Shown: one piece after another, positions 6,112 through 30,115 of the stretch
Position numbering within the stretch: position 1 is the first letter of the stretch
Layout of the letters: each line of letters starts with the position of its first letter
IMG/VR virus record: IMGVR_UViG_3300044591_002613
From: a virus
Length of the DNA stretch: 64,000 nucleotides
Direction: 5' to 3' (one strand)
Program-made: the position numbers and the translations under genes
The notes under the pieces: model-generated
Seen by the model: only the letters and a program-made list of their open reading frames with translations
Told to the model about the DNA's origin: nothing
Databases searched by the model: none

Positions 6112-6393
6112 TTACTTACTTATCGGAGGTTTGCTTTCTAACTTTAGGCGTTTCGACAAAAAATCCGTCATTTTTATTGTTAATTCTGCCAAGCGATTAG
6201 CATCATAGCCGGCCAACTTTTCTGCGTTTGGTATTGACGATGCCGGAATTTTTACCAATTCTTTTTCGTTATCTTTATATACAAGAACTGTCCATAACAT
6301 TTCTTGTTCACTAAATTCCCATACAACTTCAATGCCAGTGTCTTGGTGTGTGAACGAAAAATAACGATTATCTTCCGATGCTTCGGATTTCAT
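6112..6393 (-). CDS. Hypothetical protein
   Basis: ORF; 3' end reads through the promoter repeat. Confidence 0.6.
   Translation of the reverse strand: MKSEASEDNRYFSFTHQDTGIEVVWEFSEQEMLWTVLVYKDNEKELVKIPASSIPNAEKLAGYDANRLAELTIKMTDFLSKRLKLESKPPISK
6117..6146 (-). promoter_or_regulatory. sigma28-type promoter repeat 1
   Basis: TAAAGTTA-GAAAGCAAACC-TCCGATAA. Confidence 0.8.
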
Positions 6394-6638
6394 AATAGCG
6401 ACTCAAACTCTTGTTTTGGTTCAAAACAAACCATAAACTCTTCGGTATTCAGAAGTTTATCCGTTTCTTTATTTCCATCGTAAATAGACTTTTCAATATA
6501 CCCATAACATTGAAGTCCGTGAAGATTGCAATAATTCACGCAGGCAAGTTTTTTATTGACAGGTTTTACAGGTTTTACTGAAATTGGTATCAAAAAGATT
6601 AGACCTATTACAACAAAGTATTTAACAAATCTAACCAT
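6390..6638 (-). CDS. Small membrane/secreted Cys-rich protein
   Basis: Hydrophobic N-terminus, four Cys. Confidence 0.55.
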   Translation of the reverse strand: MVRFVKYFVVIGLIFLIPISVKPVKPVNKKLACVNYCNLHGLQCYGYIEKSIYDGNKETDKLLNTEEFMVCFEPKQEFESLL

Positions 6639-6651
6639 TTTAATACTCTTA

Positions 6652-6867
6652 TTATTTAATTCTAATTGGCGTTGAGTCTTTATCTAGAACGTGTTTTCTG
6701 AATGCTTTACCAATCGACTCGGCAGAAAAAACTTTCTTAACTGTCGATGCGGAAATATCTTGATACAAATAAACAGATTTATTATGGTATTCGATAAGCA
6801 GAGCTTGGGTTTCGTCATTGTAAAAGTAGCCCGCAACAACGCTAGAATCAACCTTTGTCATTTTCAT
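6652..6867 (-). CDS. KTSC domain protein
   Basis: VDSSVVAGYFY..L.IEY....YLY......AESIGKAF. Confidence 0.85.
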   Translation of the reverse strand: MKMTKVDSSVVAGYFYNDETQALLIEYHNKSVYLYQDISASTVKKVFSAESIGKAFRKHVLDKDSTPIRIK

Positions 6868-6999
6868 TTTTATACACCCTCACGCTTTTAATATAATTAT
6901 CAAAGTTTTTGGCAATAGACAACCAAATAAGTATAGACCCAACACCCTTCAGTATTCCTGCAAGAACTACGAGTAACAATAAGGTGGAGGTTTCCATTA

Positions 7000-7227
7000 T
7001 TATTTTTCTACCCTTTTCTTTTTGCTTGGCGTGGGTGTTTGAGCAATTTCTGGATTAGGACAATGTGGTTGTATTGTTACTGGCTTGTCGCGTTCTGGTT
7101 TTATTCTGCCATTTTTGTCTGCTGGTTGAACACAAACTTTAGTTTCGGTAGATGACTTTTTACCAATATCACGATCTTTATAACCAACAAACAATAATGA
7201 AGAGACTGCAATAATTACTTTCAACAT
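7000..7227 (-). CDS. Small secreted hypothetical protein
   Basis: Hydrophobic N-terminus, GAGG RBS. Confidence 0.5.
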   Translation of the reverse strand: MLKVIIAVSSLLFVGYKDRDIGKKSSTETKVCVQPADKNGRIKPERDKPVTIQPHCPNPEIAQTPTPSKKKRVEK

Positions 7228-7235
7228 GATTTACC

Positions 7236-7616
7236 TCACTCAAAATATTCTTTTGCCCAACCGTTTTCTGTTGTGTACCAAACTTCTTTGATATTATTTT
7301 GTTTAATAATTGATTGACAACCCGAACACGGTCTAGCCATTCCAAGTTCTCCGTTGCGTTTAATTCTCGCAACAACCAAAATCATTCCATCAAGCGATTC
7401 CACAAAATTCTTGGCTCTAATAATTGCTTGCATTTCTGCATGAACTGTTACTGGACGCCCATAGAACTTCGACAGAGGATGCGTTTTAGCATTGTTAGTG
7501 CCCACACTAATTAGCCTCTTTTTTGCAAAGATTGCCGCTCCTAGCTTGTATTGATAGTCTGTGCTTTCCATTGCCGCTGCGACCGCTGCTCGGAATTGAC
7601 TTGGCATTTTTGTCAT
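7236..7616 (-). CDS. Cytidine/deoxycytidylate deaminase-family zinc protein
   Basis: HAE and PCxxC (ARPCSGC) motifs. Confidence 0.85.
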   Translation of the reverse strand: MTKMPSQFRAAVAAAMESTDYQYKLGAAIFAKKRLISVGTNNAKTHPLSKFYGRPVTVHAEMQAIIRAKNFVESLDGMILVVARIKRNGELGMARPCSGCQSIIKQNNIKEVWYTTENGWAKEYFE

Positions 7617-7634
7617 AAAAGAGAAAGGTCGGGA

Positions 7635-8003
7635 TTACCCGACCAGTTCCTTTGAGCGGCGTGCTGAAGCTCGCTTCGAGCTTTCTTGAACATGGCCCTC
7701 TTTCGAGGAAACAAAATAGCGAGTCTTGCCGTTAGGCCCACCCCATGATGCATCAATAAGGTTAACACCGCAGAAGGAGCTATATGTTCCACAGAAGCGT
7801 TCAATGAGCGAGGTTGCTCGCCCCTTTGAAAGGCCAGTGTTCACCAAAAGCTGCTGCAAAGAAGAGTTTGTAACTCCTTCAGTTGGAAGCGCAGAAAGTA
7901 CAGTGTAAGCGGCTGATGGTAGCTTGGCGGAAACCGACTCTCCTGTCTTAGAATTAGTGTAAGTGACGGTGGCAACAGAATTATTATGGGAAACAGTCAA
8001 CAT
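7635..8003 (-). CDS. Putative winged-helix protein, family A (distant member)
   Basis: NSSLQQLL..SKGRATSLIERF..GPNGKTRYF resembles 30877/32690. Confidence 0.6.
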   Translation of the reverse strand: MLTVSHNNSVATVTYTNSKTGESVSAKLPSAAYTVLSALPTEGVTNSSLQQLLVNTGLSKGRATSLIERFCGTYSSFCGVNLIDASWGGPNGKTRYFVSSKEGHVQESSKRASARRSKELVG

Positions 8004-8062
8004 ATTTATCTCCTTTATTGATTGACTAACATAGTCTTAAACGTGAATCATTTTACTGAGTA

Positions 8063-8407
8063 TCATTTTTCAGGGGAGGCTTCTTCAACTTTCATCAAAA
8101 CTTTTTTGCCATCTGGACGAACGCATTGGCGTTCAAGAAGAGCACTGCCTTCTGTTAGTGAAAGAGTAACAAAAAGAGTCTTTTTCATGCCCATCATAGC
8201 AACAACCGCTTCTTCTTCGGTGTCTTTAATAGGAACAACTGCGAGTGGCTTAATTTGATCTGCAAGAACTGTCATTCGCGCATGGCAACTCATTTTACCG
8301 TCAGCAAGTCTGCTTGCCGCACCGTTAGAAACTAATACTGTCAACCCTCCAAGCAAAACCAACAAACCAGATTTATACGCTTGATTCATATACACATACC
8401 TCATCAA
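8063..8407 (-). CDS. Secreted hypothetical protein
   Basis: Signal-peptide-like N-terminus. Confidence 0.55.
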   Translation of the reverse strand: MMRYVYMNQAYKSGLLVLLGGLTVLVSNGAASRLADGKMSCHARMTVLADQIKPLAVVPIKDTEEEAVVAMMGMKKTLFVTLSLTEGSALLERQCVRPDGKKVLMKVEEASPEK

Positions 8408-8970: not shown

Positions 8971-8977
8971 GTAAGCC

Positions 8978-9139
8978 TCAGTTAGTGGTTGTGTAGTATT
9001 CTTGTCGAAGAACTACAAACAATCCGCCTTCTTTTTCTTTTGCTTTTAGTTCGTCGATCAAAACTTCGATTGCATCTCTTTCTTTAAGAATTCGCTGCAA
9101 CTGGTCAACTAATTCTGGGGGCAATTCGTTAGCGTTCAT
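8978..9139 (-). CDS. Small hypothetical protein (53 aa, below track cutoff)
   Basis: MNANELPPELVDQ...; fills the gap in the operon. Confidence 0.5.
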   Translation of the reverse strand: MNANELPPELVDQLQRILKERDAIEVLIDELKAKEKEGGLFVVLRQEYYTTTN

Positions 9140-9732: not shown

Positions 9733-9742
9733 AGTAACCTCC

Positions 9743-10114
9743 TCAAACAAGTTCGTCAGGTACAAGGACAATCAGGGGGCGATTTTCTTCGAACTCTGCG
9801 TGGATTTCTGCTGCGCGATCATTTGTTTCGAGAACATTATCAATAAATGAACTTGCCGTTTCAGCAGAAACTTTGCGCCATCCACTCTTTCCACTTTTTC
9901 TTTTAATGAGTGCCTCGAAGCATGAATCGCCATAGTCAACATCCCTCATTCTTACTTTTGTGTATGCACAGTTAATGTCGCCCACAGTGAAATGCCCATT
10001 GCTCATCAAGGTGTACGCCTTGTATGTGAAATTGCTTTCTCCTCCACTCTTGCTATTAGTAGCTTTTTGGATCATGCGAACACCGAGCACAGAAACCTTG
10101 TTAACCGTCTTCAT
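9743..10114 (-). CDS. Hypothetical protein
   Basis: First ORF after sigma28-type promoter 10146. Confidence 0.65.
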   Translation of the reverse strand: MKTVNKVSVLGVRMIQKATNSKSGGESNFTYKAYTLMSNGHFTVGDINCAYTKVRMRDVDYGDSCFEALIKRKSGKSGWRKVSAETASSFIDNVLETNDRAAEIHAEFEENRPLIVLVPDELV

Positions 10115-10145: not shown

Positions 10146-10175
10146 TACTTATCGGAACCTTGGGGTCTAACTTTA
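10146..10175 (-). promoter_or_regulatory. sigma28-type promoter repeat 2
   Basis: TAAAGTTA-GACCCCAAGGT-TCCGATAA. Confidence 0.8.
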
Positions 10176-10595
10176 CAGGAAATTGGAAACAAATTGCTCA
10201 AGTTTTTGGTTGGCTACGTTCTCCTTATCAAAATGTGCAATACTAAGCAAGAAATTAAGCATCATCTCGCGGTCGTGCGATGTAGTGAAGAACGAAACCT
10301 GTGATCGAGTTTCAAAGTCGTTGCAATGCAGGTTCTTAAAAACCTCGTTAGCATCACACTTTAGATTGCCAAAGGATGCAAACGGGCCAAAGATTGGTGG
10401 ACAGTTTTTGGTCTTGAGTGTAAGTTCACCAACTTGTTTGTATCTGTTGAATATAAACACAACATCACATTTTGTAAGATCTTTTTCGGAAGTTTCATAA
10501 GCGCAGCCACCGCCAAGAGGTATGCTTCTAGTTTTTTCTAAATTCCAATAACAAATAAGACTGCGTTGATCATAAATAGGCTTGTGGTACTGCAT
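10173..10595 (-). CDS. Hypothetical protein
   Basis: GGAGG RBS; stop overlaps next promoter. Confidence 0.65.
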   Translation of the reverse strand: MQYHKPIYDQRSLICYWNLEKTRSIPLGGGCAYETSEKDLTKCDVVFIFNRYKQVGELTLKTKNCPPIFGPFASFGNLKCDANEVFKNLHCNDFETRSQVSFFTTSHDREMMLNFLLSIAHFDKENVANQKLEQFVSNFL

Positions 10596-10618: not shown

Positions 10619-10648
10619 TACTTATCGGAAGTGCGGAGTCTAACTTTA
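10619..10648 (-). promoter_or_regulatory. sigma28-type promoter repeat 3
   Basis: TAAAGTTA-GACTCCGCACT-TCCGATAA. Confidence 0.8.
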
Positions 10649-10830: not shown

Positions 10831-11187
10831 TTAACAAGTACCGACATTTTGTTGATGACCATTCGGCTCTGCTAGTACGGCGCGGACTGTATATGACATA
10901 TTGCAACTATTTTTATAAATGTGTCCACTACTGCCACTGAAGTACCATACGCTATATGTATATGAAGTATCAAAGTACACCGAAGCCGTCCAGTAATATG
11001 TATCCTGACAACTCTTCCTGAACTCCTCGTTATGGTCATAAAGGTCACACCACTCACCGCGAGTCAGGAGGCGCAGGCCGCGTGTCTTTGCCCATTCCAT
11101 CGCCTCATCGTAGGTCATCTTGTCTTCCGGCTCGAAGTAACCGATACCGTCTATAGTCATGTAACTTAATTTGTAAACTGCTTTCAT
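10831..11187 (-). CDS. DUF1566/Lcl-like domain protein
   Basis: EA..WA...GLRLLT..E...L....YWTAS.....W.......VRAV. Confidence 0.7.
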   Translation of the reverse strand: MKAVYKLSYMTIDGIGYFEPEDKMTYDEAMEWAKTRGLRLLTRGEWCDLYDHNEEFRKSCQDTYYWTASVYFDTSYTYSVWYFSGSSGHIYKNSCNMSYTVRAVLAEPNGHQQNVGTC

Positions 11188-11891
11188 ACCGGCTCCTTCT
11201 CTACCTCGTAGTGCGTGACCACAAAGCGCAGTCCTACCAGACCGTCTTCCTTGTAGGCATACAGCCCACCCGTGCCGACGTATTGGTTGTTGCCCTTGAG
11301 TAGTTCCTGCAGTAGTCCTCTTGCCATACGCCGCAGGTCACCGATGCTTGGCGATTCAACCGAACCATGCCAAGTCCATTCAAGTGCTTTCATGGTACGA
11401 TGGACTAGCTCGAAGTCAAACTCGTCAAGAATCTCGTCAATTATTTCGGTACTCATTCCTCGTCCTCCGGTTCCCACATCAAAATTGTTGTGGATTTCTT
11501 CTTTTTTTGGATAGGTATTGATTGTGTACAACAGTTTAAATAATTGGTCTAATTCAATTGGTTTAGTATGAAATTTAGTTGATATAGATCTCGAGCCGTA
11601 ATCAACATGCCCACCCATACTTTGAATGCCTTGGGCATCTCCTCTTGGTATAAATTGGCGAAGAATATTGGCTATTTCTTCATATTGTTGCCTATTTAGA
11701 TCTAATGACATCCTTTCAAATTCTGCAAATATCAATGTTCCACCTCTCATCATAAAAAATATAGAAGCCGAATGAATAGACGTTTCGGCCACTTCTTTTA
11801 AGAAAGAAGCATGGATAGTGCAGTCGAATAAATCTTTTTTTAAGTGGGGAAACAGACTATTTGGTTTTAAATTCCAATAATAATGAGGCAT
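11184..11891 (-). CDS. Apparent in-frame fusion of two hypothetical genes (second starts at 11456)
   Basis: Internal GGAGG RBS and ATG at 11456; C-half is paralogous to 35321-35665. Confidence 0.6.
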   Translation of the reverse strand: MPHYYWNLKPNSLFPHLKKDLFDCTIHASFLKEVAETSIHSASIFFMMRGGTLIFAEFERMSLDLNRQQYEEIANILRQFIPRGDAQGIQSMGGHVDYGSRSISTKFHTKPIELDQLFKLLYTINTYPKKEEIHNNFDVGTGGRGMSTEIIDEILDEFDFELVHRTMKALEWTWHGSVESPSIGDLRRMARGLLQELLKGNNQYVGTGGLYAYKEDGLVGLRFVVTHYEVEKEPV

Positions 11892-11906: not shown

Positions 11907-11936
11907 TACTTATCGGAGGCAAGGGATCTAACTTTA
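11907..11936 (-). promoter_or_regulatory. sigma28-type promoter repeat 4
   Basis: TAAAGTTA-GATCCCTTGCC-TCCGATAA. Confidence 0.8.
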
Positions 11937-12302
11937 GGGCCAAAAGTTTTTAATATATCTATCTGCAAAATCATCCGCATCTTTTTCGGCTATTGCTTTA
12001 TCTTTATCATCGACACAATAGATATAATCTAAAAACTTTTTATTATCTGCCTGCCATGCGTGGCGATATTCATGTGCAAGTATCCAAGCAACTTTTTTGA
12101 TAGAGCGTGGATAATAAATCTCTCGGTCAGTTGATGCACAAACGTATATCTTTCTTTGTTTTGCATTGCAGCAACCATCTGTTTCTTTATTGATCCACCG
12201 TACAAACTCAACCTTCCACCCCTTCTCTTTCAAACGAAGGAGAAGGGGTTTCACCGCTGGATGGTTTCGTATTTCTTGCTTGTACTTTACAGTCCATCTC
12301 AT
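11934..12302 (-). CDS. HExxH zinc metallopeptidase-like protein
   Basis: ILAHEYRHAWQ ... AEKDADDFA. Confidence 0.75.
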   Translation of the reverse strand: MRWTVKYKQEIRNHPAVKPLLLRLKEKGWKVEFVRWINKETDGCCNAKQRKIYVCASTDREIYYPRSIKKVAWILAHEYRHAWQADNKKFLDYIYCVDDKDKAIAEKDADDFADRYIKNFWP

Positions 12303-12553
12303 TTCTGAAATGTCTTTGACAAAAGTTTGATGAACTGGGAAAAGTCAATGTTAGTTGGTTGTTCTACTTGCTGGCCGTTAACTTCATAAACCACTTCGTG
12401 CTGAAGGCTTCGATCATTAACGCGCAATGTAGTTTTGTCTTTGTGCAAACGCTTCACCGTAACTGTTCGCTTTTTTACATTAAACTCAAGGTACTCGTAG
12501 CTAAACCCTTCAACTGCGCGAATCAATTTTCTGAAAACTACTGCTTTCTTCAT
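12299..12553 (-). CDS. Hypothetical protein
   Basis: RBS; behind promoter 12583. Confidence 0.6.
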   Translation of the reverse strand: MKKAVVFRKLIRAVEGFSYEYLEFNVKKRTVTVKRLHKDKTTLRVNDRSLQHEVVYEVNGQQVEQPTNIDFSQFIKLLSKTFQK

Positions 12554-12582: not shown

Positions 12583-12612
12583 TACTTATCGGAACTTGGA
12601 AATCTAACTTTA
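12583..12612 (-). promoter_or_regulatory. sigma28-type promoter repeat 5
   Basis: TAAAGTTA-GATTTCCAAGT-TCCGATAA. Confidence 0.8.
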
Positions 12613-13092: not shown

Positions 13093-13518
13093 TCACGCTC
13101 CTAACTGATAAATCTCGAACTTGTTCTTTTTACAATAAATGACGGGCAAGTCTAGCGTTACATTTCGTTGGTAAGTATGCTTACTCGTTAAGCCTTCAGC
13201 AATTAAGTCTCGCCGCACTGTGATATACACTTTTCCGTTTGTTGATAACAAGGCTTTTATATTATTTAATACTTGTTCTTGTTCGGAAACACTCATCACA
13301 TTTACCACAAACGTACACAGAATGGTATCGAACTTGCCTTCTGGCATTTGAGGTCGCCAATAAGGGTCATAGCCTTCGATGTTCAGCTCTTCGCAATCTT
13401 TGCCGTGTCCACACCCATAATCAAGAACACGGCCAGTCAATAACTTTTGTTGTCTCAGGAATCGGGCGGGAGCAGATATAGAATTACGTTTAATTGCGGT
13501 CTTATGGCTGTTGTTCAT
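13093..13518 (-). CDS. Class I SAM-dependent methyltransferase
   Basis: VLDYGCGHGKD motif I, GYDPY, FDTILCTFVVNV. Confidence 0.85.
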   Translation of the reverse strand: MNNSHKTAIKRNSISAPARFLRQQKLLTGRVLDYGCGHGKDCEELNIEGYDPYWRPQMPEGKFDTILCTFVVNVMSVSEQEQVLNNIKALLSTNGKVYITVRRDLIAEGLTSKHTYQRNVTLDLPVIYCKKNKFEIYQLGA

Positions 13519-13928
13519 ACGCACTCCATAAGTTGCATCATAAACTTTCGACGAGTATCTTCGGAAAAATGTCTTTTTGTAACTTTAAGAGCGCGAACTA
13601 CTTCTTCCATTTTTGTTAAGAAAATTTCGCGGTTTTCTATCAATCGTCCTCTTTGCCCATAACCCCAATACGTCACAATATGATCAGTTTGCTCAAAAAT
13701 ATGTTTCATTTCAAGAAAAACATCATAACCAATACGCGCACTGCTATGAGTAAATTGCACAAGAGTTTTTTCTTGCCAACCATCTCTGGAGACACTCAGT
13801 TCGGCAGAAGCCGGTATCAACGGATTGCCAGGTTCTAAATATCTGCACTCATTTATTTCTATTCTGTAGACTCGTTTATTGGTTTGCTTGCAGTCTCTTA
13901 AGATTTTTACTTTGTAACTGCCAATCAT
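13515..13928 (-). CDS. Hypothetical protein, family D
   Basis: MIGSYKVKILRD..QTNKRVYRIEINEC; RHFSEDTR. Confidence 0.7.
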   Translation of the reverse strand: MIGSYKVKILRDCKQTNKRVYRIEINECRYLEPGNPLIPASAELSVSRDGWQEKTLVQFTHSSARIGYDVFLEMKHIFEQTDHIVTYWGYGQRGRLIENREIFLTKMEEVVRALKVTKRHFSEDTRRKFMMQLMECV

Positions 13929-13947: not shown

Positions 13948-13977
13948 TACTTATCGGAAGTTCCAAGTCTAACTTTA
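13948..13977 (-). promoter_or_regulatory. sigma28-type promoter repeat 6
   Basis: TAAAGTTA-GACTTGGAACT-TCCGATAA. Confidence 0.8.
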
Positions 13978-14355
13978 TATATTTGATGTTAATTGACGCA
14001 ATAAACTTTCACGGGTTTTTTCGGAGAAAAGTCGTTTTTGCACAGGAATTTCCATGATTGCCTGTTTGGTTTTCATAAGTAAGGTTTCATGGTCAAGTAA
14101 TTCATTTGAAGTGTCAGGTCGGCCAAAATACCTGATTGCATTTTCAGGAAACTGGTCAACCATTTTATCTAGTAGCTCATAGCCAATTCTACGATTGTTG
14201 GTATAAAGTTTGATGACTGAATTTTCTTTATATTCCATAATGTTCGGAAATATTTCTTTATCTGTAGTAAAACACTCCGCAATTTCAATCAGATACCGTC
14301 GTTTGTTTTGTTGATCATAATCACGAAAAACTGTTAATTTATATCCGCCATTCAT
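13975..14355 (-). CDS. Hypothetical protein, family D
   Basis: MNGGYKLTVFRD..QQNKRRYLIEIAEC; RLFSEKTR; start moved downstream of promoter/RBS. Confidence 0.7.
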   Translation of the reverse strand: MNGGYKLTVFRDYDQQNKRRYLIEIAECFTTDKEIFPNIMEYKENSVIKLYTNNRRIGYELLDKMVDQFPENAIRYFGRPDTSNELLDHETLLMKTKQAIMEIPVQKRLFSEKTRESLLRQLTSNI

Positions 14356-14375
14356 CACAGGCTCCTCCTTATACT

Positions 14376-14405
14376 TACTTATCGGAGCTTTGGAATCTAA
14401 CTTAA
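14376..14405 (-). promoter_or_regulatory. sigma28-type promoter repeat 7
   Basis: TTAAGTTA-GATTCCAAAGC-TCCGATAA. Confidence 0.8.
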
Positions 14406-15085: not shown

Positions 15086-15361
15086 TCAAAAATTCTCATA
15101 ATTATAATAATTATTTTTATTGTTTTTTTCCAGCTCTTCTTGTTCAATTTGATCTTGAACATCAAGAATACGCATTATGATGTTTGAGTTGTGCTCTCGA
15201 GAGTCGAGAACTTCTTGAATAACAAGGCCGTCGTGGTCTTTTGGGTCAATTTCGGAAGCATGTTCAAGGATTTTAACCAGTAGTTGAGCATCGTTGGCAT
15301 TATCTTCAACGTCAATTTCAAGCGTGACGGGCATTGTAACAGTGACAGTTAGTTTTCTCAT
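15086..15361 (-). CDS. Hypothetical acidic protein
   Basis: GGAGG RBS behind promoter 15381. Confidence 0.65.
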   Translation of the reverse strand: MRKLTVTVTMPVTLEIDVEDNANDAQLLVKILEHASEIDPKDHDGLVIQEVLDSREHNSNIIMRILDVQDQIEQEELEKNNKNNYYNYENF

Positions 15362-15380: not shown

Positions 15381-15410
15381 TACTTATCGGAAGTTTGGAA
15401 TCTAACTTTA
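15381..15410 (-). promoter_or_regulatory. sigma28-type promoter repeat 8
   Basis: TAAAGTTA-GATTCCAAACT-TCCGATAA. Confidence 0.8.
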
Positions 15411-15412: not shown

Positions 15413-15892
15413 TTAAAAGTTGCTCATATAACTGTCAACAGCTTTTTGGCGATTCTTTTTACTAAAAGTTTTTGGTGGTAGAGTGTCAAGAGCATTTTGT
15501 AAGACTTGCATAAATTCTTCGTCGGATAAAAGCGTTCTGGCATTGATAATAAATTCATGGGGTTTGTCATTAAAATGGTATCCCCATTTTGATAATGTTA
15601 AACCGCTTGGCAGAAATTTTTCTACATTGCTCCAAATTCTTGAGCATGTGGGCCAATTTGCATCAATTGAAAATACAGTTTTTCTTTGCATACCAAAAAT
15701 CTTAATCAGAAAGTCAGATGCGCCGTAGTAATAAGCCACGGATGGTTCTGCCTGCTCATACGCTTTCCATTTTTCTTCGACAGATTCTGGGGAAAGATCA
15801 TCTACAATTTCTTTGTAGCAAAAAAGAGTATATTTATGGCTCGTGTTTTGGCTTCTGTTACGATTTATTGTTAATTGATAATAACCCTTCAT
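15413..15892 (-). CDS. Hypothetical protein, family D
   Basis: MKGYYQLTINRNRSQN...KTFSKKNR. Confidence 0.65.
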   Translation of the reverse strand: MKGYYQLTINRNRSQNTSHKYTLFCYKEIVDDLSPESVEEKWKAYEQAEPSVAYYYGASDFLIKIFGMQRKTVFSIDANWPTCSRIWSNVEKFLPSGLTLSKWGYHFNDKPHEFIINARTLLSDEEFMQVLQNALDTLPPKTFSKKNRQKAVDSYMSNF

Positions 15893-15913: not shown

Positions 15914-15943
15914 TACTTATCGGAGTTTTAGGTTCTAACTTTA
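15914..15943 (-). promoter_or_regulatory. sigma28-type promoter repeat 9
   Basis: TAAAGTTA-GAACCTAAAAC-TCCGATAA. Confidence 0.8.
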
Positions 15944-16926: not shown

Positions 16927-16956
16927 TACTTATCGGAGGTTTTGGTTCTAACTTTA
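16927..16956 (-). promoter_or_regulatory. sigma28-type promoter repeat 10
   Basis: TAAAGTTA-GAACCAAAACC-TCCGATAA. Confidence 0.8.
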
Positions 16957-17544
16957 ATAAAATTCGCAAAAAACATTAAAAGAAACAGACACTTTATTCC
17001 CATCTGTTGAGGGAGAATAATGTTTTAATGACGAGGGAAATAAAAAAGTTTCTCCTTCTTGTGCATAATTTGTATTATGTAATTTTTCAAAATCTAAACA
17101 ACCATCGGGAGAAGAAAACGCAGTCAGATTTTTGCCTTCTAAATTTAGAAGATAAAAACCGCTTATTTTAATTTTTTTAAAGAAAACAGATTCACCGTGG
17201 TCATGTAAATAAACATGATCTCCAGTGTCATAAACATTCCACCATATTTTATTCAAACCAGCGGTTTTAATTTCTTGGTTTTTGTAAATTTGGTGTTTGC
17301 GGAGCAGTTCATTTAATGGTTCAAAAATAACATTATCAAAGAAAAATTTATCAAAAACGCTTGGCGGTTTTTCAATGTTTGAATGACATAAATTGGTTTT
17401 TCTTCCACCAAAATAATATTCATCTTTTAATTTATTTTTTTCAAATTCTTCTAATATCTTAGGAAGATATATTTGCTTTACCTCTTCATGCCTGTTCACT
17501 TTTGTGTGGAAGACAAAGGGGGGTGTAAACTCAAATATATCCAT
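16954..17544 (-). CDS. 2OG-Fe(II) oxygenase (TIGR02466-like)
   Basis: WWNVY..GD...HDH..ISG..YL..EG...LFPSSLKH..SVSFN. Confidence 0.85.
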   Translation of the reverse strand: MDIFEFTPPFVFHTKVNRHEEVKQIYLPKILEEFEKNKLKDEYYFGGRKTNLCHSNIEKPPSVFDKFFFDNVIFEPLNELLRKHQIYKNQEIKTAGLNKIWWNVYDTGDHVYLHDHGESVFFKKIKISGFYLLNLEGKNLTAFSSPDGCLDFEKLHNTNYAQEGETFLFPSSLKHYSPSTDGNKVSVSFNVFCEFY

Positions 17545-17560: not shown

Positions 17561-18298
17561 TTATTTTGGTGTTAAAATCTGCCGTTGTCCTTGACCACCC
17601 CCACCTGCGCCACCATAAACAAGAGGACAAGCGGCTTTTTTAGTTTCTTGGACAGGAGGTGTTGCGAGCAGTTCTTGAGAACATGTTACAAGAACGATTT
17701 TGTCTGCAGTTTTGTTTTTAATTGCATCTTCGCCAACAATCCACCAATCGTGAGCAATTTTTTCTTGGAGTTCTTTTACAGTTAATCCAAGCCGTTTAGC
17801 TATTTGAGCATCCATCACATCTACAAGGCGTTTCACAAAGGCAATTTGTGAATCCATGCTTCTTAGCTGACCCCGTGTACCGCCACTTACCTGATGGTGC
17901 ATCAAGATGGTGGTTGGAGCAACAAACCTGTCATCGCAAGCGGCCTGAAGAAAGTAAAAGGCCATAGAAGCAGCCGAACCGACCAAGCAAGTGACTCGAA
18001 GATTTGAGTTTGCAGCTTTGGCTGCGCGAACAGTCTCGATTGCTCTAAGGCCGTCCATGACGCTTCCGCCAGGAGAATCAATATAAACAGTGATTTCGTT
18101 TGAACTTTGGCTCAAAAAGTCTCTAATAAACCTAGAAACGCTATCCGTATTAAACTCTTCTGTAAATGTAACAAAAGAATTAGGTTTTAAGACCACAACC
18201 TCTGGCTGCTGTGGAGGTGGTTGTACTTCTGTTTTTGCCGCAGCAATAGCAGAAGCACTTAAAAGACTAAATGCAACAAGTTTCTTAAAAAAGTTCAT
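17561..18298 (-). CDS. clpP: ClpP-family protease with N-terminal signal peptide
   Basis: IDSPGGSV, AASMA (Ser), MHHQ (His), HDWW (Asp); N-terminus MNFFKKLVAFSLLSASAIAA. Confidence 0.85.
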   Translation of the reverse strand: MNFFKKLVAFSLLSASAIAAAKTEVQPPPQQPEVVVLKPNSFVTFTEEFNTDSVSRFIRDFLSQSSNEITVYIDSPGGSVMDGLRAIETVRAAKAANSNLRVTCLVGSAASMAFYFLQAACDDRFVAPTTILMHHQVSGGTRGQLRSMDSQIAFVKRLVDVMDAQIAKRLGLTVKELQEKIAHDWWIVGEDAIKNKTADKIVLVTCSQELLATPPVQETKKAACPLVYGGAGGGGQGQRQILTPK

Positions 18299-18664: not shown

Positions 18665-18988
18665 TCAAATACGGCTTGGATCTAAAATCAATATCAGTTT
18701 TTCAATTTTTGCAACTAATTCTTCACAGGAAACTTTAGTCTTTTCAAAATGGGGATAAATTTCATAGTAAAAATTCACTTTGTCGCTATCCGAGATGCTT
18801 TTCAGCACCGAAATATTTTCAGACAACTCTTTCGAAGTATATTTTGCTGTGTTCTCTGGCATGTTTTCTTCGGAATAATAAAATCTAAATAACACTTCTG
18901 TATTTTCTGGAACTTTAATTACAATCTCCGCAGGATTGTTGATAAAAAGCCTACTTGTATTGATAGTAGGATACGTTTCGAGCTTCAT
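18665..18988 (-). CDS. Hypothetical protein
   Basis: GGAGG RBS behind promoter 19010. Confidence 0.65.
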   Translation of the reverse strand: MKLETYPTINTSRLFINNPAEIVIKVPENTEVLFRFYYSEENMPENTAKYTSKELSENISVLKSISDSDKVNFYYEIYPHFEKTKVSCEELVAKIEKLILILDPSRI

Positions 18989-19002: not shown

Positions 19003-19383
19003 TTACATATACTTATCGGAAGTTTTGGCTCTAACTTTAATACTATTGCAATCAATTTTTAGCGTTATTCCTTCTAAAACATTGAATTTTCCTACAGTGG
19101 AAGACAAGCCTGAATCCCATTTATTATTATCTAAACGCCAACGATAATAATATCTTTTATTTTTATGGTCAATTTTTTCAACGCGAACAAAATGCCTAGA
19201 CTTCCAAACATTAGATGTTGGATCTACTAACATTAGACAATCGCCAATAGCGTACTTGCTTGTCGGTTCTTTGAGTGCGTCTTGAGGAACAATAGGCGCT
19301 TCTGTTGGTTTGTTAGAAACACATGCCGCCAGTAGGCCAAACAACGCTATCTTACTAAATGTATTCAACCCATCCGTCCTCAT
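19003..19383 (-). CDS. Lipoprotein
   Basis: Lipobox LAAC; C-terminus reads through promoter repeat (KVRAKTSDKYM). Confidence 0.65.
   Translation of the reverse strand: MRTDGLNTFSKIALFGLLAACVSNKPTEAPIVPQDALKEPTSKYAIGDCLMLVDPTSNVWKSRHFVRVEKIDHKNKRYYYRWRLDNNKWDSGLSSTVGKFNVLEGITLKIDCNSIKVRAKTSDKYM
19010..19039 (-). promoter_or_regulatory. sigma28-type promoter repeat 11
   Basis: TAAAGTTA-GAGCCAAAACT-TCCGATAA. Confidence 0.8.
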
Positions 19384-19954: not shown

Positions 19955-20416
19955 TTAAAGACTTTGTGCATAATCGTCAATTTGATATTCGTAAAAACTA
20001 CTTTCTAATTGAAACTCATCTTCAAACTCTTTCGGTAGCGTTTCAAAACATTCTGGCGTATGTGGGTAGTTATACTCAGTCATATGTCCGTTGTCATATT
20101 TGCCTAAAATACAACCACCCGATTCATCCCACAGGGCATAAACGTCAAAGCCTAGTTCGTTCATTTTGAAATAAAATTGAACTGGAGGACTCCATGCAGT
20201 CATAAAATATAGTTTCATCATGTTATTTTCTTGGATAGCAACAGTGGGTTCGCTAATCTCCCACTTTGTTCCCCAATGATCAAAATGGCTCTGGCCTTCT
20301 GGAACTGAAGCAAACGTACTAAATAAGTTCTCTTGATTACTCGCATCAACTGCTTTTTTGATCATCGACTGATCATAATGCCTGAGTGTTAAAACATTCG
20401 TACACCAGTTTGGCAT
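19955..20416 (-). CDS. DUF1281/YubB ferredoxin-like domain protein
   Basis: MPNWC.N, WGTKW, F.TAWSPP. Confidence 0.8.
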   Translation of the reverse strand: MPNWCTNVLTLRHYDQSMIKKAVDASNQENLFSTFASVPEGQSHFDHWGTKWEISEPTVAIQENNMMKLYFMTAWSPPVQFYFKMNELGFDVYALWDESGGCILGKYDNGHMTEYNYPHTPECFETLPKEFEDEFQLESSFYEYQIDDYAQSL

Positions 20417-20439: not shown

Positions 20440-20469
20440 TACTTATCGGAAGTTTGCAATCTAACTTTA
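20440..20469 (-). promoter_or_regulatory. sigma28-type promoter repeat 12
   Basis: TAAAGTTA-GATTGCAAACT-TCCGATAA. Confidence 0.8.
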
Positions 20470-20470: not shown

Positions 20471-20821
20471 TTAAATTTTTTCAAGGTCTCTTTGTAGAAT
20501 ATGTTTTCCACAAGCTACATATCGCCATTCACTGTCAACTATAGATCCTGGTTGTCCGCATCTTTCGCAAGTTGTTTGGCTTCTTTTACACGCTTCGCTG
20601 ATCAACTCATAGTCTTCGTCGGAGTATAGAGCCGCATATATTCTCATAGAGCCAAACTTTTCTTTTATTTGCCTAAAATAAATATCTTTATTATGAGACA
20701 ACTGCTCGCACAGATCCCATATAATTTCATACCAGCCTTCATTTATTTCAAACGAACACTTTTTCAGTTTCTTTGGGAAGGCTTCCATTAAGTCTTCGTA
20801 GGTTATTTTTTTAGGTTTCAT
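20471..20821 (-). CDS. Conserved phage protein (QIKEKFG + CxxC)
   Basis: EGW, QIKEKFGSMRIY, TCERCG. Confidence 0.75.
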   Translation of the reverse strand: MKPKKITYEDLMEAFPKKLKKCSFEINEGWYEIIWDLCEQLSHNKDIYFRQIKEKFGSMRIYAALYSDEDYELISEACKRSQTTCERCGQPGSIVDSEWRYVACGKHILQRDLEKI

Positions 20822-21476
20822 TGGTAGTCCACGCTTTTGATGGTGCGCCATGATAAATCAGGCCGATATTTGGAGAATCCCCCAAGCCCGCCACTAGGTC
20901 ATCTTCACTCGCATCAACGTATCCGGCAGCAAGCAATTCTTCTCGAGAACCAAAAACTCTGGAGTGAGGTTTTGAACGGTCGATTTCTTTATCGAACAGG
21001 CCACCCTCACTAAATATGAGCTTGAAGTTTTGTGGAACGGTGATAGCGCGAAAGAATCGAACCATCTTTGTATAGGCATAGAACCTAATGTTTGGATTAG
21101 CCTCCATGATTTGTTTCCACTTGCGCCAGTAGTTGAGCGCATAGAAGTCGCCGGAATCATGTATTCTAATAACAACCTGTGTATTCTTTTTAGATGCTTT
21201 TCTTACAATTTCGTTAATTTCAAGCTGCATTAGTTCTGGAAAGCTTTCTAATGTAGTTTGAGTATATCGCCATTCATAAACAGAGGCTACATTTGAAAAT
21301 CTATATGCACCTTGCTGAGCATAACAACCGTTTTCTTTGGCACAGATGCCAGCGGCAGGGCAAGTTATCTTGCCATCTCGTGTTTTATAGGCGGTGATAC
21401 CAAAATTCCACAACTGAATATCATGTTTTTTGCCAGACTTTCTGATTTTGGCATTTTTAGTCAAGAGCGTTGGCAT
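20811..21476 (-). CDS. GP88-family protein
   Basis: TCP.A..C....CYA..G, IRIHDSGDFY, YAYTK. Confidence 0.85.
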   Translation of the reverse strand: MPTLLTKNAKIRKSGKKHDIQLWNFGITAYKTRDGKITCPAAGICAKENGCYAQQGAYRFSNVASVYEWRYTQTTLESFPELMQLEINEIVRKASKKNTQVVIRIHDSGDFYALNYWRKWKQIMEANPNIRFYAYTKMVRFFRAITVPQNFKLIFSEGGLFDKEIDRSKPHSRVFGSREELLAAGYVDASEDDLVAGLGDSPNIGLIYHGAPSKAWTTNET

Positions 21477-21492: not shown

Positions 21493-21522
21493 AACATATC
21501 GGAGTTTTACAATCTAACTTTA
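21493..21522 (-). promoter_or_regulatory. sigma28-type promoter repeat 13
   Basis: TAAAGTTA-GATTGTAAAAC-TCCGATAT. Confidence 0.8.
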
Positions 21523-21798
21523 TAGTTCAAACGAAAGGCTTAAATCATTTTTAAGCTGTTCTATATCGCCATGAATCAAAACTTTTTCTTCCCAATTATG
21601 TTCAAAAATGGGTAAACCCTTGGCATCTCTAATTAATCTTTTGTTTCCATCTAGTTGGTAATAGCCAAGTTCTCCAAGAGCCTCTGACATTTCTGTAAAT
21701 CTATTTATCCACTTAATCTTTTGATCACCCAGTTTAACAAACGCCCATCTATGTGCATCCATTATGACAGCTTTAGTTCTTGCTTGATATATCATCAT
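21520..21798 (-). CDS. Hypothetical protein
   Basis: Stop overlaps promoter. Confidence 0.55.
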   Translation of the reverse strand: MMIYQARTKAVIMDAHRWAFVKLGDQKIKWINRFTEMSEALGELGYYQLDGNKRLIRDAKGLPIFEHNWEEKVLIHGDIEQLKNDLSLSFEL

Positions 21799-22003
21799 CG
21801 CTGTAAAATCCTCTTTCGATTAAAGCATTTGTAAGATGTTTTTCAAAATAAACTTGTACATCACGTCTTTGCAGTGGGCTCCAGCACTGCGGCAAAGATG
21901 TTTCCAGCTCTTCGATCAACATATCAAATAGAGATATAACGGCTTTATATTCATTAAATACCGATTCTTTTGACGGGCTAGTAGTATCGTTTTTCATAAA
22001 CAT
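21773..22003 (-). CDS. Hypothetical protein
   Basis: GGAGG RBS behind promoter 22019. Confidence 0.6.
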   Translation of the reverse strand: MFMKNDTTSPSKESVFNEYKAVISLFDMLIEELETSLPQCWSPLQRRDVQVYFEKHLTNALIERGFYSDDDISSKN

Positions 22004-22018: not shown

Positions 22019-22048
22019 TACTTATCGGAAGTTTGCAATCTAACTTTA
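22019..22048 (-). promoter_or_regulatory. sigma28-type promoter repeat 14
   Basis: TAAAGTTA-GATTGCAAACT-TCCGATAA. Confidence 0.8.
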
Positions 22049-22049: not shown

Positions 22050-22661
22050 TTAATGAGTGGCAAATTTCCAATCTTCTGGGTATAAGAAAATATTTCCAGA
22101 AATTGTGCAACGATTTGTATCTTGTTTTTGCATATGAACGCCGTGGCTGAGGTGAGATGGGAAAATAATCATTTGCCCCTCCTTCACTTGTGGCGAAAAA
22201 ATATCTGGCCAATGCGTTTTGCTAAATAAACTCAAAATTCGATTTAAACCAGAGGCCGAGTAATTTTTAGCCTTATCATTTACGAAATAAAACTCTGCAT
22301 CATTTTCATTAAGATTCATAAAATAAACATAAGAAAAATTTGAAATTGGAGATACGTGATGATGAATTTCTTGCCAACAGCCTTGGTTATAAATATTCAT
22401 CCAAACAGATTCTATGTTGTATTTAAGTTCTTTATGTGCCCCAAAATCATTAACCATCTTTAACACTGCAAAATGTAATTGTTTTAAAAACAATTCGTAA
22501 TCTATTTCTTTATTTTTTGCGCGACTTGTGAATACTTTGCAGGGCCACATCAATTGTTCTTGGCATTTTTCTTTTGCAATTGGTAAGAAATGATCTTTTA
22601 AAGATTCGTGGTTAGTAACTTCATAAATGTAATAAAACTCTGGAAATAATTGTTGAATCAT
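22050..22661 (-). CDS. 2OG-Fe(II) oxygenase (TIGR02466-like)
   Basis: WMNIY..G..QEIHHH..FSYVYF..EGQMIIFPSHLSHGV..RCTISGN. Confidence 0.85.
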   Translation of the reverse strand: MIQQLFPEFYYIYEVTNHESLKDHFLPIAKEKCQEQLMWPCKVFTSRAKNKEIDYELFLKQLHFAVLKMVNDFGAHKELKYNIESVWMNIYNQGCWQEIHHHVSPISNFSYVYFMNLNENDAEFYFVNDKAKNYSASGLNRILSLFSKTHWPDIFSPQVKEGQMIIFPSHLSHGVHMQKQDTNRCTISGNIFLYPEDWKFATH

Positions 22662-22679: not shown

Positions 22680-22709
22680 TACTTATCGGAAGTTTGGAGT
22701 CTAACTTTA
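22680..22709 (-). promoter_or_regulatory. sigma28-type promoter repeat 15
   Basis: TAAAGTTA-GACTCCAAACT-TCCGATAA. Confidence 0.8.
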
Positions 22710-22710
22710 G

Positions 22711-25688: not shown

Positions 25689-25718
25689 TACTTATCGGAA
25701 CTTTGGAATCTAACTTTA
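25689..25718 (-). promoter_or_regulatory. sigma28-type promoter repeat 16
   Basis: TAAAGTTA-GATTCCAAAGT-TCCGATAA. Confidence 0.8.
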
Positions 25719-27095: not shown

Positions 27096-27307
27096 ACGTC
27101 TACCCAACTACCGACTAAATCAAACTGTTCAATATCATAGCGATGGGCATAAGAATCCCAACCTTTTTCTTTACATTGTTGTATGTGACTTTGTCGAACT
27201 TCTTCTAGTTTGCGCTCGGCATCTTCCCTTTGAAGGAAAATTGTGGATTCTAGGCCGTCAACAAACTCCCATCCTGCTCCGTCAAATAAAACCATATAGG
27301 CTTTCAT
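27092..27307 (-). CDS. Small protein, family E
   Basis: MKAYMV..IFLQREDA..LVGSWVDV. Confidence 0.65.
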   Translation of the reverse strand: MKAYMVLFDGAGWEFVDGLESTIFLQREDAERKLEEVRQSHIQQCKEKGWDSYAHRYDIEQFDLVGSWVDV

Positions 27308-27546
27308 ACGTCTATCCAGCTTCCTTTTAATTCAAGTTGAATGTGGCTAAATTCATAATGTTCTCTTTCTTTGTATCTTTCACAAAAAGACTTATGAGCC
27401 TCGGTAAGATGTTCTACTCGCTTAAGAGCATCTTTTTCTTGCAAGAAAACAAAGTCGTCAAACCAGTTATCGGGAAATCGGGTGACGTTTCCCATAACAT
27501 CCATATCATGATGGATTCTCATTCGATACACCATAAAAACTTTCAT
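27304..27546 (-). CDS. Small protein, family E
   Basis: MKVFMV..VFLQEKDA..LKGSWIDV. Confidence 0.65.
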   Translation of the reverse strand: MKVFMVYRMRIHHDMDVMGNVTRFPDNWFDDFVFLQEKDALKRVEHLTEAHKSFCERYKEREHYEFSHIQLELKGSWIDV

Positions 27547-27572
27547 GAAGACCACCCTTTGTTCCTTATATA

Positions 27573-27602
27573 TACTTATCGGAACAATACAATCTAACTT
27601 TA
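27573..27602 (-). promoter_or_regulatory. sigma28-type promoter repeat 17
   Basis: TAAAGTTA-GATTGTATTGT-TCCGATAA. Confidence 0.8.
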
Positions 27603-27665
27603 GGATATGTTTATTTCATCGACACATAAGAATGGATTTGTCGATAAATTGACAATTTATGAACA

Positions 27666-27881
27666 TTAACTGACCCATTCGTAATCAAAATTTTTGATCT
27701 CGTAGCCAAATTCATTTATCAAAATTCTTATTGCCCGCCATTTGTATTGAGCAAATTGAGCAAGCATGGGGATTTGTTCTTCCGTCCATACGACTTCTTT
27801 AGGCAAGGAAGTAGTGTCTCGAAGGTAGTATTCATGGATAGGGTCTTCCGACCATTCGATATTAAAGATTCGAATTATCAT
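27666..27881 (-). CDS. Small protein, family B
   Basis: MIIRIFNIEW..LPKEVV..FDYEWVS. Confidence 0.75.
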   Translation of the reverse strand: MIIRIFNIEWSEDPIHEYYLRDTTSLPKEVVWTEEQIPMLAQFAQYKWRAIRILINEFGYEIKNFDYEWVS

Positions 27882-27886
27882 TCCCA

Positions 27887-28144
27887 TCAATTCACCCATT
27901 CAATATCAAATGAATCTACTCCGTACCAGCTATACAATTCATTCAAATACTCAACGGCAACTTGTTCGTTGAACAGCTTGTCGTGTTTTTCGTCTTGTTC
28001 GATAAATATGCGTTCTTTTGGGAGTTGATGATATATTTCCAAATCTCTCTGCCAACCCCCATAATTGAATTCACCGCTATGATAGACGTAATCTTCTTGT
28101 TTGGGCTTGCACCAAACAATGTTATAGAAGCGAACTACAAGCAT
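27887..28144 (-). CDS. Small acidic protein, family B
   Basis: MLVVRFYNIVW..LPKE..FDIEWVN. Confidence 0.75.
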   Translation of the reverse strand: MLVVRFYNIVWCKPKQEDYVYHSGEFNYGGWQRDLEIYHQLPKERIFIEQDEKHDKLFNEQVAVEYLNELYSWYGVDSFDIEWVN

Positions 28145-28154
28145 AGACTCTCCG

Positions 28155-28367
28155 TTAGTCTACCCATTCAACGTCAACAGATTCAACGCCACACCAGTTG
28201 TACATTTCAAGGAATGAGATGGCCATTTTTGCATCAAATTGGTTTTTGTGTTCTGGTTCAATAAACAAATCCAAAACCACCTCTTTAGGTAGTTGGTCGT
28301 ATGCGGTTAAGTCTTGTTGTTCTGGTAATCGCCAGACGATGTTATAGAATCTTACTAAATAGTGCAT
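28155..28367 (-). CDS. Small acidic protein, family B
   Basis: LVRFYNIVW..LPKEVV..VDVEWVD. Confidence 0.75.
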   Translation of the reverse strand: MHYLVRFYNIVWRLPEQQDLTAYDQLPKEVVLDLFIEPEHKNQFDAKMAISFLEMYNWCGVESVDVEWVD

Positions 28368-28375
28368 AGACCCCC

Positions 28376-28591
28376 CTAGTCCACCCATTCGATATCTGCT
28401 TTATCAACACACCAATTAAATTTATAAGACAAGGCATCAAGCCAAGAATCAAGGTCGTTCATTTCTTTTTCATCAAATTTTGCATCAAACTCCATGACGT
28501 GTTCATTGGGAAGATCATTTGGGCGGCTGCCTTCCTCAGAACAATCTGGACAGCCATAATCCCATTGAATGTTATAAAAACGAACTATCAT
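28376..28591 (-). CDS. Small acidic protein, family B
   Basis: MIVRFYNIQW..LPNE..ADIEWVD. Confidence 0.75.
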   Translation of the reverse strand: MIVRFYNIQWDYGCPDCSEEGSRPNDLPNEHVMEFDAKFDEKEMNDLDSWLDALSYKFNWCVDKADIEWVD

Positions 28592-28833
28592 TTTTTGGAC
28601 TCGTCATCTTGCGGGACATCGGGAACGCGTGACCACACTCCTCGTTTGAACATCCATAAAGTATTGTCATCACACAATACTAAGTCTGCTTCCTCGCAAG
28701 AGGCTATTTGTACAATCTGGCGTTTCTTTTTGGTAACAAGAGGCAATATTATTAGATTAATAGTAAACCAAATACAAAAAACAATTATAAATATACAGCC
28801 CGTGATCGGCAGAAGCATTCTGGCAATTTCCAT
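28588..28833 (-). CDS. Small membrane protein
   Basis: N-terminal TM; LCDDNTLW..W..VPDVPQ. Confidence 0.6.
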   Translation of the reverse strand: MEIARMLLPITGCIFIIVFCIWFTINLIILPLVTKKKRQIVQIASCEEADLVLCDDNTLWMFKRGVWSRVPDVPQDDESKK

Positions 28834-28845
28834 AAGACCCTCTCG

Positions 28846-29055
28846 TTAATCTACCCATTCGACATCGACTGATTTAACCAAATAGCCATAGATCTCGGAA
28901 AGAACCTCTGGGGCATCTTCGGCATCAAACTCAATGCCCTCTGCCCACTCCCCCACAACAGATTTAGGAAGTTCGTCACGGGGCCGTATGTAATCCACAT
29001 AGTCAAACGACTCGTCAACATCCCCCCATACAATGTTGTAGAAGCGGACTATCAT
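28846..29055 (-). CDS. Small acidic protein, family B
   Basis: MIVRFYNIVW..LPKS..VDVEWVD. Confidence 0.75.
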   Translation of the reverse strand: MIVRFYNIVWGDVDESFDYVDYIRPRDELPKSVVGEWAEGIEFDAEDAPEVLSEIYGYLVKSVDVEWVD

Positions 29056-29067
29056 ATCCACCCCCCC

Positions 29068-29319
29068 TTAGCTGATCCACTCCACCTTTACGCTCTTAAC
29101 ATAAAAGCCATATATTTCTGACAGGTGTTCTGGGGCACTTTCTACATCGTATTCTGTGTGATAGTCGTCATCAAGTTCAAAAATAGTTTCTTTGGGCAAG
29201 GCTTCAAAATCATCGCAGGCTTGATAATACTCCACCCATTCATCATGAGTGCTTTGGTAAATATAATCATATTTAGTTGGATTGATCCATTCGATATCAT
29301 AAAACCTAACTGTCAACAT
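29068..29319 (-). CDS. Small acidic protein, family B
   Basis: MLTVRFYDIEW..LPKE..VKVEWIS. Confidence 0.75.
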   Translation of the reverse strand: MLTVRFYDIEWINPTKYDYIYQSTHDEWVEYYQACDDFEALPKETIFELDDDYHTEYDVESAPEHLSEIYGFYVKSVKVEWIS

Positions 29320-29336
29320 AATACAGACCTCCCGTA

Positions 29337-29630
29337 TCAGCCCACCCTCTTACCAGCACGGCTCTCGAGGTACACGGTGTTATCAGCAATAACCATTTTC
29401 TCCATGATGGCCAATCCAAGAACACCCGAAACTGATATTCCGTCAGCGGCTAATTTAGCTAGTGAAGTAGAACCCAAATACTCATTGCCAGCCCCATGAG
29501 TCTTGGGATTAAATTCACCAACCAATTCAAAATTACAATCAACAACAAGCCAGCAAGTATCAGGGCGACCAACCAACAAGAGCTTATTACCATTGCTCAA
29601 CTTAACCATTCCAATTCCACGGTCAATCAT
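29337..29630 (-). CDS. Hypothetical protein
   Basis: First ORF after promoter 29677. Confidence 0.6.
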   Translation of the reverse strand: MIDRGIGMVKLSNGNKLLLVGRPDTCWLVVDCNFELVGEFNPKTHGAGNEYLGSTSLAKLAADGISVSGVLGLAIMEKMVIADNTVYLESRAGKRVG

Positions 29631-29676
29631 AATGGCCCCCTTGTTTTATTCCTTAAAGGAAACATTTCCTTCCCTA

Positions 29677-29706
29677 TCCTTATCGACCAAAACAAATCTA
29701 ACTTTA
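29677..29706 (-). promoter_or_regulatory. sigma28-type promoter repeat 18
   Basis: TAAAGTTA-GATTTGTTTTG-GTCGATAA; A/T-rich upstream. Confidence 0.75.
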
Positions 29707-29769
29707 ACTAAAAAAACGAACAAATAAATCATTTTAATAAATAAAACAATAAAATGTCTATAGGGGAAA

Positions 29770-30069
29770 ACAATTGGTTAAGACCTAGCCAATCTGTGGG
29801 ATGTATAGATCGTTAATGGGCATATGGTAGTAACGGAATCACCTTTATATCTTTAAGGGGTTCATGCCTATAAGACGACCAACGAAGAGTGGTTACAAGC
29901 CACAGGACTTCGCTATACCAAGGATCTATATATAAGGAAATTTCTAGATTGCTTTAGCAATCAATTCTTAGGGAGTAACTTCTAGCCTAAACGCCCAGAA
30001 GTAGCTTCAAACTCAGGGCGATCTTGACCACTCCCAAGACGCTACTAGCTTAAAGATCTTCTTTTTTTT
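29770..30069 (+). ncRNA. Candidate structured ncRNA
   Basis: No ORF; at least seven nested or adjacent stems; ends in T8 tract; strand inferred only from the T tract. Confidence 0.4.
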
Positions 30070-30085
30070 GTGTCGAAAATAACCC

Positions 30086-30115
30086 TAAAGTTAGATTTAA
30101 TAGTGCCGATAAGTA
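30086..30115 (+). promoter_or_regulatory. sigma28-type promoter repeat 19
   Basis: TAAAGTTA-GATTTAATAGT-GCCGATAA (perfect -10). Confidence 0.85.

Follow-up and report, generated by a model that had tools for sequence, protein, structure and literature searches.

Nineteen candidate sigma-28-class promoters in the accessory gene region of an uncultured freshwater phage

In the window analysed here, a 64,000-nucleotide (nt) stretch of IMGVR_UViG_3300044591_002613, an uncultured freshwater phage with a 164-kb genome, we have identified 19 copies of a 30-bp element, TAAAGTTAGA-N9-TCCGATAAGTA, which on sequence grounds are best read as promoters of the sigma-28 (FliA/SigD/WhiG) class. Eighteen copies are found on the minus strand (6117-29706), serving a block of about 66 co-directional small genes (4827-29630, minus strand), and one is found on the plus strand (30086). 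Both boxes of the element resemble those of flagellar promoters, the distance between them never varies, and the two boxes are kept in a sister phage where the surrounding nucleotides are not.

The 30-bp element and the gene block behind it

Read on the strand of the genes, the element takes the form cTAAAGTTAGA-N9-TCCGATAAGTA, followed by a Shine-Dalgarno (SD) sequence and then a start codon. Fifteen of the 19 copies match at all 21 specified positions, while the remaining four carry one (14376-14405 and 30086-30115), two (21493-21522) or three (29677-29706) mismatches; the spacing of the boxes is invariant in all 19. The nine nucleotides between the ends are weakly conserved as ttcCAAAct, and the 25 nt upstream of the copies are richer in A+T (72%) than the background (62%). 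Scanning the window with the pattern TAAAGTT-N13-CCGATAA at two mismatches or fewer returned 23 matches, against 0.93 ± 0.96 (maximum 3) in 100 dinucleotide-preserving shuffles. These matches comprise the 19 array copies, one degenerate copy in the control region (32621-32647) and three at chance level (7115, 42890 and 61484).

A preliminary description of this DNA, made from the letters alone, had counted nineteen copies, and the scan located one at each of their coordinates. Its further claims, that the element always follows the orientation of the downstream gene, usually sits just before a ribosome-binding site and is absent from the structural region, held as well: every copy is co-oriented with the gene downstream, the end of CCGATAA lies 18-34 nt ahead of an SD-led start codon in 16 of 19, and no copy occurs between 33.5 and 64 kb of the window. 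Five degenerate sigma-28-like boxes at 30.8-33.3 kb, considered below, were missing from it. For 8-9 copies, the preceding gene takes its stop codon from the TAA of the -35 box; the putative promoters are therefore packed into gene junctions.

The leftward copies serve between 1 and 12 genes each, at a mean spacing of 1.39 kb. The array begins on the left with an exact consensus copy (6117-6146) before gene 5807-6097 (96 aa). The copy at 10146-10175, whose TAA is the stop codon of the upstream gene, precedes gene 9743-10114, and those at 10619-10648, 11907-11936, 12583-12612 and 13948-13977 precede genes 10173-10595, 11184-11891 (235 aa), 12299-12553 and 13515-13928, respectively. Next comes the TTAAG variant with its single mismatch (14376-14405, before gene 13975-14358), followed by the copies at 15381-15410 (before gene 15086-15361), 15914-15943 (before gene 15413-15892) and 16927-16956, the last with a long predicted leader of 54 nt. 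Gene 18665-18988, which lies behind the copy at 19010-19039, forms an operon with the ClpP-like gene (17561-18298), and the copy at 20440-20469 stands before gene 19955-20416. A CCGATAT variant (21493-21522) precedes the GP88-family gene (20811-21476), while the copies at 22019-22048 and 22680-22709 precede gene 21773-22003 and the 2-oxoglutarate (2OG)-Fe(II) oxygenase gene 22050-22661. Behind the copy at 25689-25718 runs a series of nine genes, and the copy at 27573-27602 lies before gene 27304-27555. The first leftward copy, the GTCGATAAGGA variant with three mismatches (29677-29706), heads a run of eight genes. All of these are on the minus strand; the sole rightward copy (30086-30115, plus strand), whose -10 box, GCCGATAA, is the closest to that of E. 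coli, precedes gene 30137-30367, and the copies at 29706 and 30086 point away from each other.

The products of the block have a median length of 106 aa and are mostly of unknown function or without a family. Those with a family are a ClpP-like protease, two 2OG-Fe(II) oxygenases, an S-adenosylmethionine-dependent methyltransferase and a GP88-family protein. Between 5 and 25 kb, sigma-70-like sites (53 versus 57 expected) and terminator-like hairpins (16 versus 14 expected) are both at chance level, and thus no start signal other than the element recurs in the block. The position of the block and the type of its genes suggest that it is expressed early.

Selection on the boxes can be judged from a sister phage, G001 (IMGVR_UViG_3300020204_000007), a complete viral contig of 169,059 bp (CheckV 100%) that aligns collinearly with the window (65-80% nucleotide identity) and was the sole close relative returned by a helicase search of IMG/VR. 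It carries 18 copies with the consensus TAAAGTTAGA-N9-TCCGATATGTA, all within 106.7-135.4 kb and co-oriented with their genes, and the spacing of the boxes is again fixed in 18 of 18. Eight promoters lie ahead of homologous genes in the two phages. Among these, identity reaches 99% in the -35 box and 88% in the -10 box, versus 51% in the spacer, 39% in the 40 nt upstream and 42% in the 20 nt downstream. Because the boxes were kept while spacer and flanks diverged, selection acts on the two boxes only, and such selection on two boxes at a fixed distance is the signature of a sigma-recognised promoter. Many copies precede genes absent from G001. Moreover, a metagenome search with the exact 30-mer pattern returned 14 stretches, many with 2-10 copies all on one strand, and these contigs contribute 42 further distinct copies in one-strand arrays.

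Sigma class of the element and its probable reader

The consensus of E. coli sigma-28 promoters is TAAAGTTT-n11-GCCGATAA (PMC2859248). The phage element, written as TAAAGTTA-n11-TCCGATAA, agrees with it at 14 of 16 positions and has the same 11-nt spacer. With respect to the -35 element TAAA(GTTT), TAAAGTTA is present in 18 of the 19 copies and TTAAGTTA in one; with respect to the -10 element (G)CCGATA(A/T), TCCGATAA is present in 16 and TCCGATAT, GCCGATAA and GTCGATAA in one each. The octamers stand 11 nt apart (15 nt from TAAA to GCCGATAA) in all 19 copies and in all 18 of G001. Orientation and distance to the SD sequence and start codon are compatible with the placement of sigma-28 promoters, the start sites being predicted ones. 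The sigma-28/FliA class, already proposed in the preliminary description, thus fits in both boxes and in their spacing. A sigma-70 reading of the element was rejected, since a spacer of only 12-13 nt would separate its best sigma-70-like hexamers.

Which factor would read these promoters was approached by a search for a phage-encoded one, made by six-frame searches of the complete G001 and covering about 98 kb of the phage itself. In G001 no sigma-70 region 2, no match to the FliA/WhiG models, no FlgM and no sigma-54 activator were found, and the general sigma model gave a region-4 fragment only (E = 0.0045). As positive controls, the same model (TIGR02937) retrieved the two sigma genes of SPO1 (E = 6e-19 and 1e-9) and the one of Myxococcus phage Mx1 (E = 2e-10); the method is therefore able to see divergent phage sigmas. 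When these three SPO1 and Mx1 sigmas were compared by phmmer at maximum sensitivity with G001, the window and its right flank, nothing fell below E = 0.2. PHROG scans of 103 mid-size open reading frames (ORFs) of G001 showed no family described as sigma among those listed, the family lists being complete for the 52 ORFs that lie in synteny with the window. When all ORFs of the window were scanned against Pfam and PHROG, no sigma family was among the first 25 families listed, and precomputed Pfam lists covering about 34 kb on its right side included no sigma gene. The preliminary description had suggested, as an alternative, a phage sigma-28-like gene outside the window; this was not borne out, and no sigma-70-family protein was found in G001, in the window or in the 34 kb to its right. 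With regard to a phage RNA polymerase, the PF00940 search of G001 revealed no T7-type enzyme, a result that is uncontrolled as 14 control genomes also gave no match, and the DFDxD polymerase motif occurred nowhere in G001 except in the tail sheath. What came closest to a sigma factor was a 188-aa Cys-rich protein encoded among the head genes (about 61960-62527, plus strand), with a weak sigma region-4-like helix-turn-helix (E = 0.005). It has no region 2 and is restricted to this phage clade, and its AlphaFold model was unusable (predicted local distance difference test, pLDDT, 42.8).

Since no sigma gene was found in the inspected parts of the phage or in the complete G001, we consider it likely that the array is read by host RNA polymerase with the host's sigma-28. 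The holoenzyme would bind TAAAGTTA as -35 and TCCGATAA as -10 box, 11 nt apart, and transcription would start a few nt downstream of the -10 box, giving short SD-containing leaders. The 18 leftward copies would re-initiate transcription every 1.4 kb or so along the 24.6-kb block with its 66 or so small accessory genes, and the single rightward copy would fire into the control region. If the block is expressed on phage entry and host sigma-28 is its reader, its expression would depend on a sigma-28-active state of the host, motile or equivalent.

Several points weigh against host sigma-28 as the reader. In 17 of the 19 copies a T replaces the G of GCCGATAA. The element is more uniform over its 30 bp than most bacterial sigma-28 regulons, its spacer being weakly conserved as well, and such uniformity would be expected also from a dedicated phage factor or from recent copy-and-paste. 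Transcript starts are predicted from sequence, and the presence of sigma-28 in the host is an assumption. Furthermore, the helix-turn-helix of the 188-aa protein is, weak as it is, sigma-like, and the sigma search leans on sequence models and on the sister genome, about 58 kb of the phage's own genome lying outside it.

Perhaps, then, the promoters are read by a specificity factor that the phage encodes, be it a highly divergent sigma or a protein redirecting a host sigma. SPO1 gp28, SPO1 gp33/34 and T4 MotA/AsiA would be the models, and the block would form a middle class that is switched on after the factor is made. That the element is unusually uniform across all its 30 bp in both phage lineages, the extra conserved GTTAGA and GTA among them, would suit such a factor, and so would the winged-helix regulators of the control region, the 188-aa protein, and the fact that Mx1, the closest cultured relative, encodes a sigma-family protein. 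However, Mx1 itself has no copy of the motif, the 188-aa protein sits among head genes and lacks region 2, and the complete G001 contains no sigma region 2, FliA-like protein or homologue of the SPO1 and Mx1 sigmas, although the controls were found. It would also be a remarkable coincidence if the two sigma-28 boxes, at sigma-28 spacing, were recognised by a protein unrelated to sigma-28. We therefore hold a phage factor to be unlikely.

It is highly improbable that the repeats are not primarily promoters but recombination joints for the shuffling of gene cassettes, operators of a DNA-binding phage protein or RNA processing sites, all of incidental sigma-28 likeness. Copies do abut the preceding gene's stop codon in 8-9 cases, many stand before genes not common to the sister phage, as expected at cassette borders, and the spacer is weakly conserved. 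Yet the two boxes do not repeat one another, whether directly or inverted, conservation is confined to them while the interval is not kept, orientation and placement before SD and start codon are strict, the window gives zero Rfam family matches, and the match to a known bipartite promoter, spacer length included, is too specific. Recombination, where promoters are repeated, would be a side effect rather than an alternative function. Repeats of 30 bp at gene junctions may favour cassette exchange as well.

Likeness to known promoter systems

With the class 3 flagellar promoters of E. coli and Salmonella, which are read by sigma-28/FliA, the phage element has in common its octamers (14 of 16 positions), the 11-nt spacer and the placement just upstream of the gene. 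It differs from them in the T for the leading G of the -10 octamer, in the extra AGA after TAAAGTT and GTA after CCGATAA, and in the occurrence of 19 near-identical copies within 24 kb of a phage genome. A large non-flagellar gene set served by sigma-28-type promoters has a counterpart in the attack-phase regulon of Bdellovibrio bacteriovorus FliA, where TTAAG-N16-CCGATA was found in 92 of 140 attack-phase promoters (PMC3627812). The TTAAG variant of these promoters is seen here in one array copy and in three copies of the control region. The Bdellovibrio regulon, however, is chromosomal and its host is known, whereas the sole hint tying the phage to the Bdellovibrionota is that its nearest cultured relative is Mx1.

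Textbook lytic phages either start from host sigma-70 promoters or bring a sigma factor or polymerase of their own. The middle and late promoters of SPO1 are recognised by gp28 and gp33/34, sigma factors of the phage. In this large myovirus, whose portal is distantly related to that of the window, many copies of one non-sigma-70 promoter likewise define a gene class; SPO1 encodes its own sigma factors, whereas in the present clade none is detectable and the promoter is a host-type sigma-28 sequence. T4-type phages have hyperplastic early regions, in which every small ORF is equipped with a host sigma-70 early promoter of its own. The block described here resembles these regions as a long run of small accessory genes punctuated by strong promoters and varying in content between relatives, but its promoters are sigma-28-type and its sigma-70-like sites are at chance level.

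In the literature searched, no phage was described with promoters of the sigma-28 class. A promoter regulon read by the host polymerase is known for phages, and on the best reading what is new here is the flagellar sigma factor. If this is true, a large phage would hand a quarter of its genes to the motility sigma factor of its host, and infection would be coupled to a host life stage (swimming, attack or transmissive phase), a regulatory logic for which the same literature contained no earlier description. Promoters of this kind could then serve as a sequence-only clue to host physiology for uncultured phages. Moreover, the element is a compact part of 30 bp and is amenable to reporter assays.

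The control region, other start signals and the phage itself

To the right of the array, in the control region (29.7-33.5 kb), perfect sigma-54-type -24/-12 boxes (TGGCACG-N4-TTGCT) occur between 30717 and 33291, at 30783 on the plus strand, 31747 on the minus strand, 32061 (plus) and 32094 (minus), and 32668, 33183 and 33291 (all minus). Five of them stand exactly 5 nt upstream of the degenerate sigma-28-like boxes. The first of the latter, TTAATGTT-N11-TCCGATAC (30804-30830, plus strand), is followed by a winged-helix gene (30877-31278). The other four are on the minus strand: one at 31700-31726 before gene 31438-31668, TTAAGTTT-N11-TCCGATAC at 32621-32647, one at 33136-33162 before the winged-helix paralogue 32690-33091, and a second, more degenerate one arranged in tandem upstream of the same paralogue (33244-33270). 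The small genes of the control region each have their own hairpin terminator. Hairpin terminators between 25000 and 35000 number 22 versus 9.2 expected, and those checked by eye follow single small genes of this region.

Sigma-54-type boxes head the two genes for a paralogous 133-aa protein, 30877-31278 (plus strand) and 32690-33091 (minus strand). This protein is specific to the clade (20 homologues, found only in these phages), and its AlphaFold model (pLDDT 85) gives weak matches to winged-helix folds (forkhead, PadR, ROQ; best E = 0.23); we call it winged-helix because of this consistent run of weak structural matches. Judging from the model, the paralogues are probable regulators of the control region. 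In G001, most of the sigma-54-type boxes form one half of a 36-bp palindrome that lies upstream of a TTAAGTTT...CCGATAA promoter. Since they are halves of palindromes there, and since the genes that they head encode winged-helix proteins, these boxes may be operators of the neighbouring winged-helix proteins rather than sigma-54 promoters.

In G001, plain TATAAT boxes lacking a conserved -35 hexamer stand ahead of replication and structural genes, which suggests -10-only promoters or activator dependence. Such boxes, for example at 52903, 61106, 66214 and 81504 of G001, sometimes have a TG ahead of them. All start signals seen are of host type. A tentative and somewhat doubtful reading would extend from these signals to the whole phage: its genome would be split among three host sigma classes, with no promoter-choice factor of its own, the TATAAT-only promoters serving replication and structural genes, the sigma-54-type ones the control region and the sigma-28 array the 66 or so accessory genes, and infection would be gated by the motile or attack stage of the host. 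Such a split would connect the phage to the flagellar cascade, from sigma-54 to sigma-28, of a polar flagellate or of a predatory, Bdellovibrio-like host.

Two further repeats were observed near the control region. The motif CTATAGGG(G/A)AAA occurs seven times within 1.7 kb (29758-31406 of the window); it resembles the start region of T7-type promoters, no T7-type polymerase gene was found, and the motif is not kept in G001. Where the control region gives way to the next module, iteron-like ACACTGT/ACAGTGT repeats are clustered, both in the window (33330-33470) and in G001 (about 101.85-102.1 kb); the cluster may be a replication origin or a regulator-binding array.

The window is a portion of a large contractile-tailed phage, and the identical phage is present in Logan assemblies and as a 164,116-bp JGI/NCBI contig, the contig records being metagenomic. 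No near DNA match to the window was found among 50,697 isolated phages. Its portal shares 23-28% identity with the portals of SPO1-like phages and Mx1, and its tail sheath shares 32% with the sheath of Mx1 (E = 2e-50); Mx1 is the nearest cultured phage. As for the host, scanning bacterial genomes with the exact element pattern gave a single match, at chance level and thus no clue, and the names of the homologues of an inosine monophosphate dehydrogenase-like gene were of no help either. The nearest atlas clusters of the RNase H are split between Bacillota and Pseudomonadota.

There are no tRNA genes in the window. On its right flank the phage has genes for a GroEL-like chaperonin, SbcCD, a RecA-like protein, ribonucleotide reductase, DnaB, a primase, a VanY/M15 endolysin and a DnaE-type polymerase. 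Finally, the window carries genes for a 5-hydroxymethyldeoxyuridine DNA kinase (54797-55726, plus strand), an alliinase-like pyridoxal phosphate enzyme (38333-39388, minus strand) and three 2OG-Fe(II) oxygenases (16954-17544, 22050-22661 and 33572-34150, minus strand). These enzymes indicate that the thymidine of the phage DNA is probably hypermodified.

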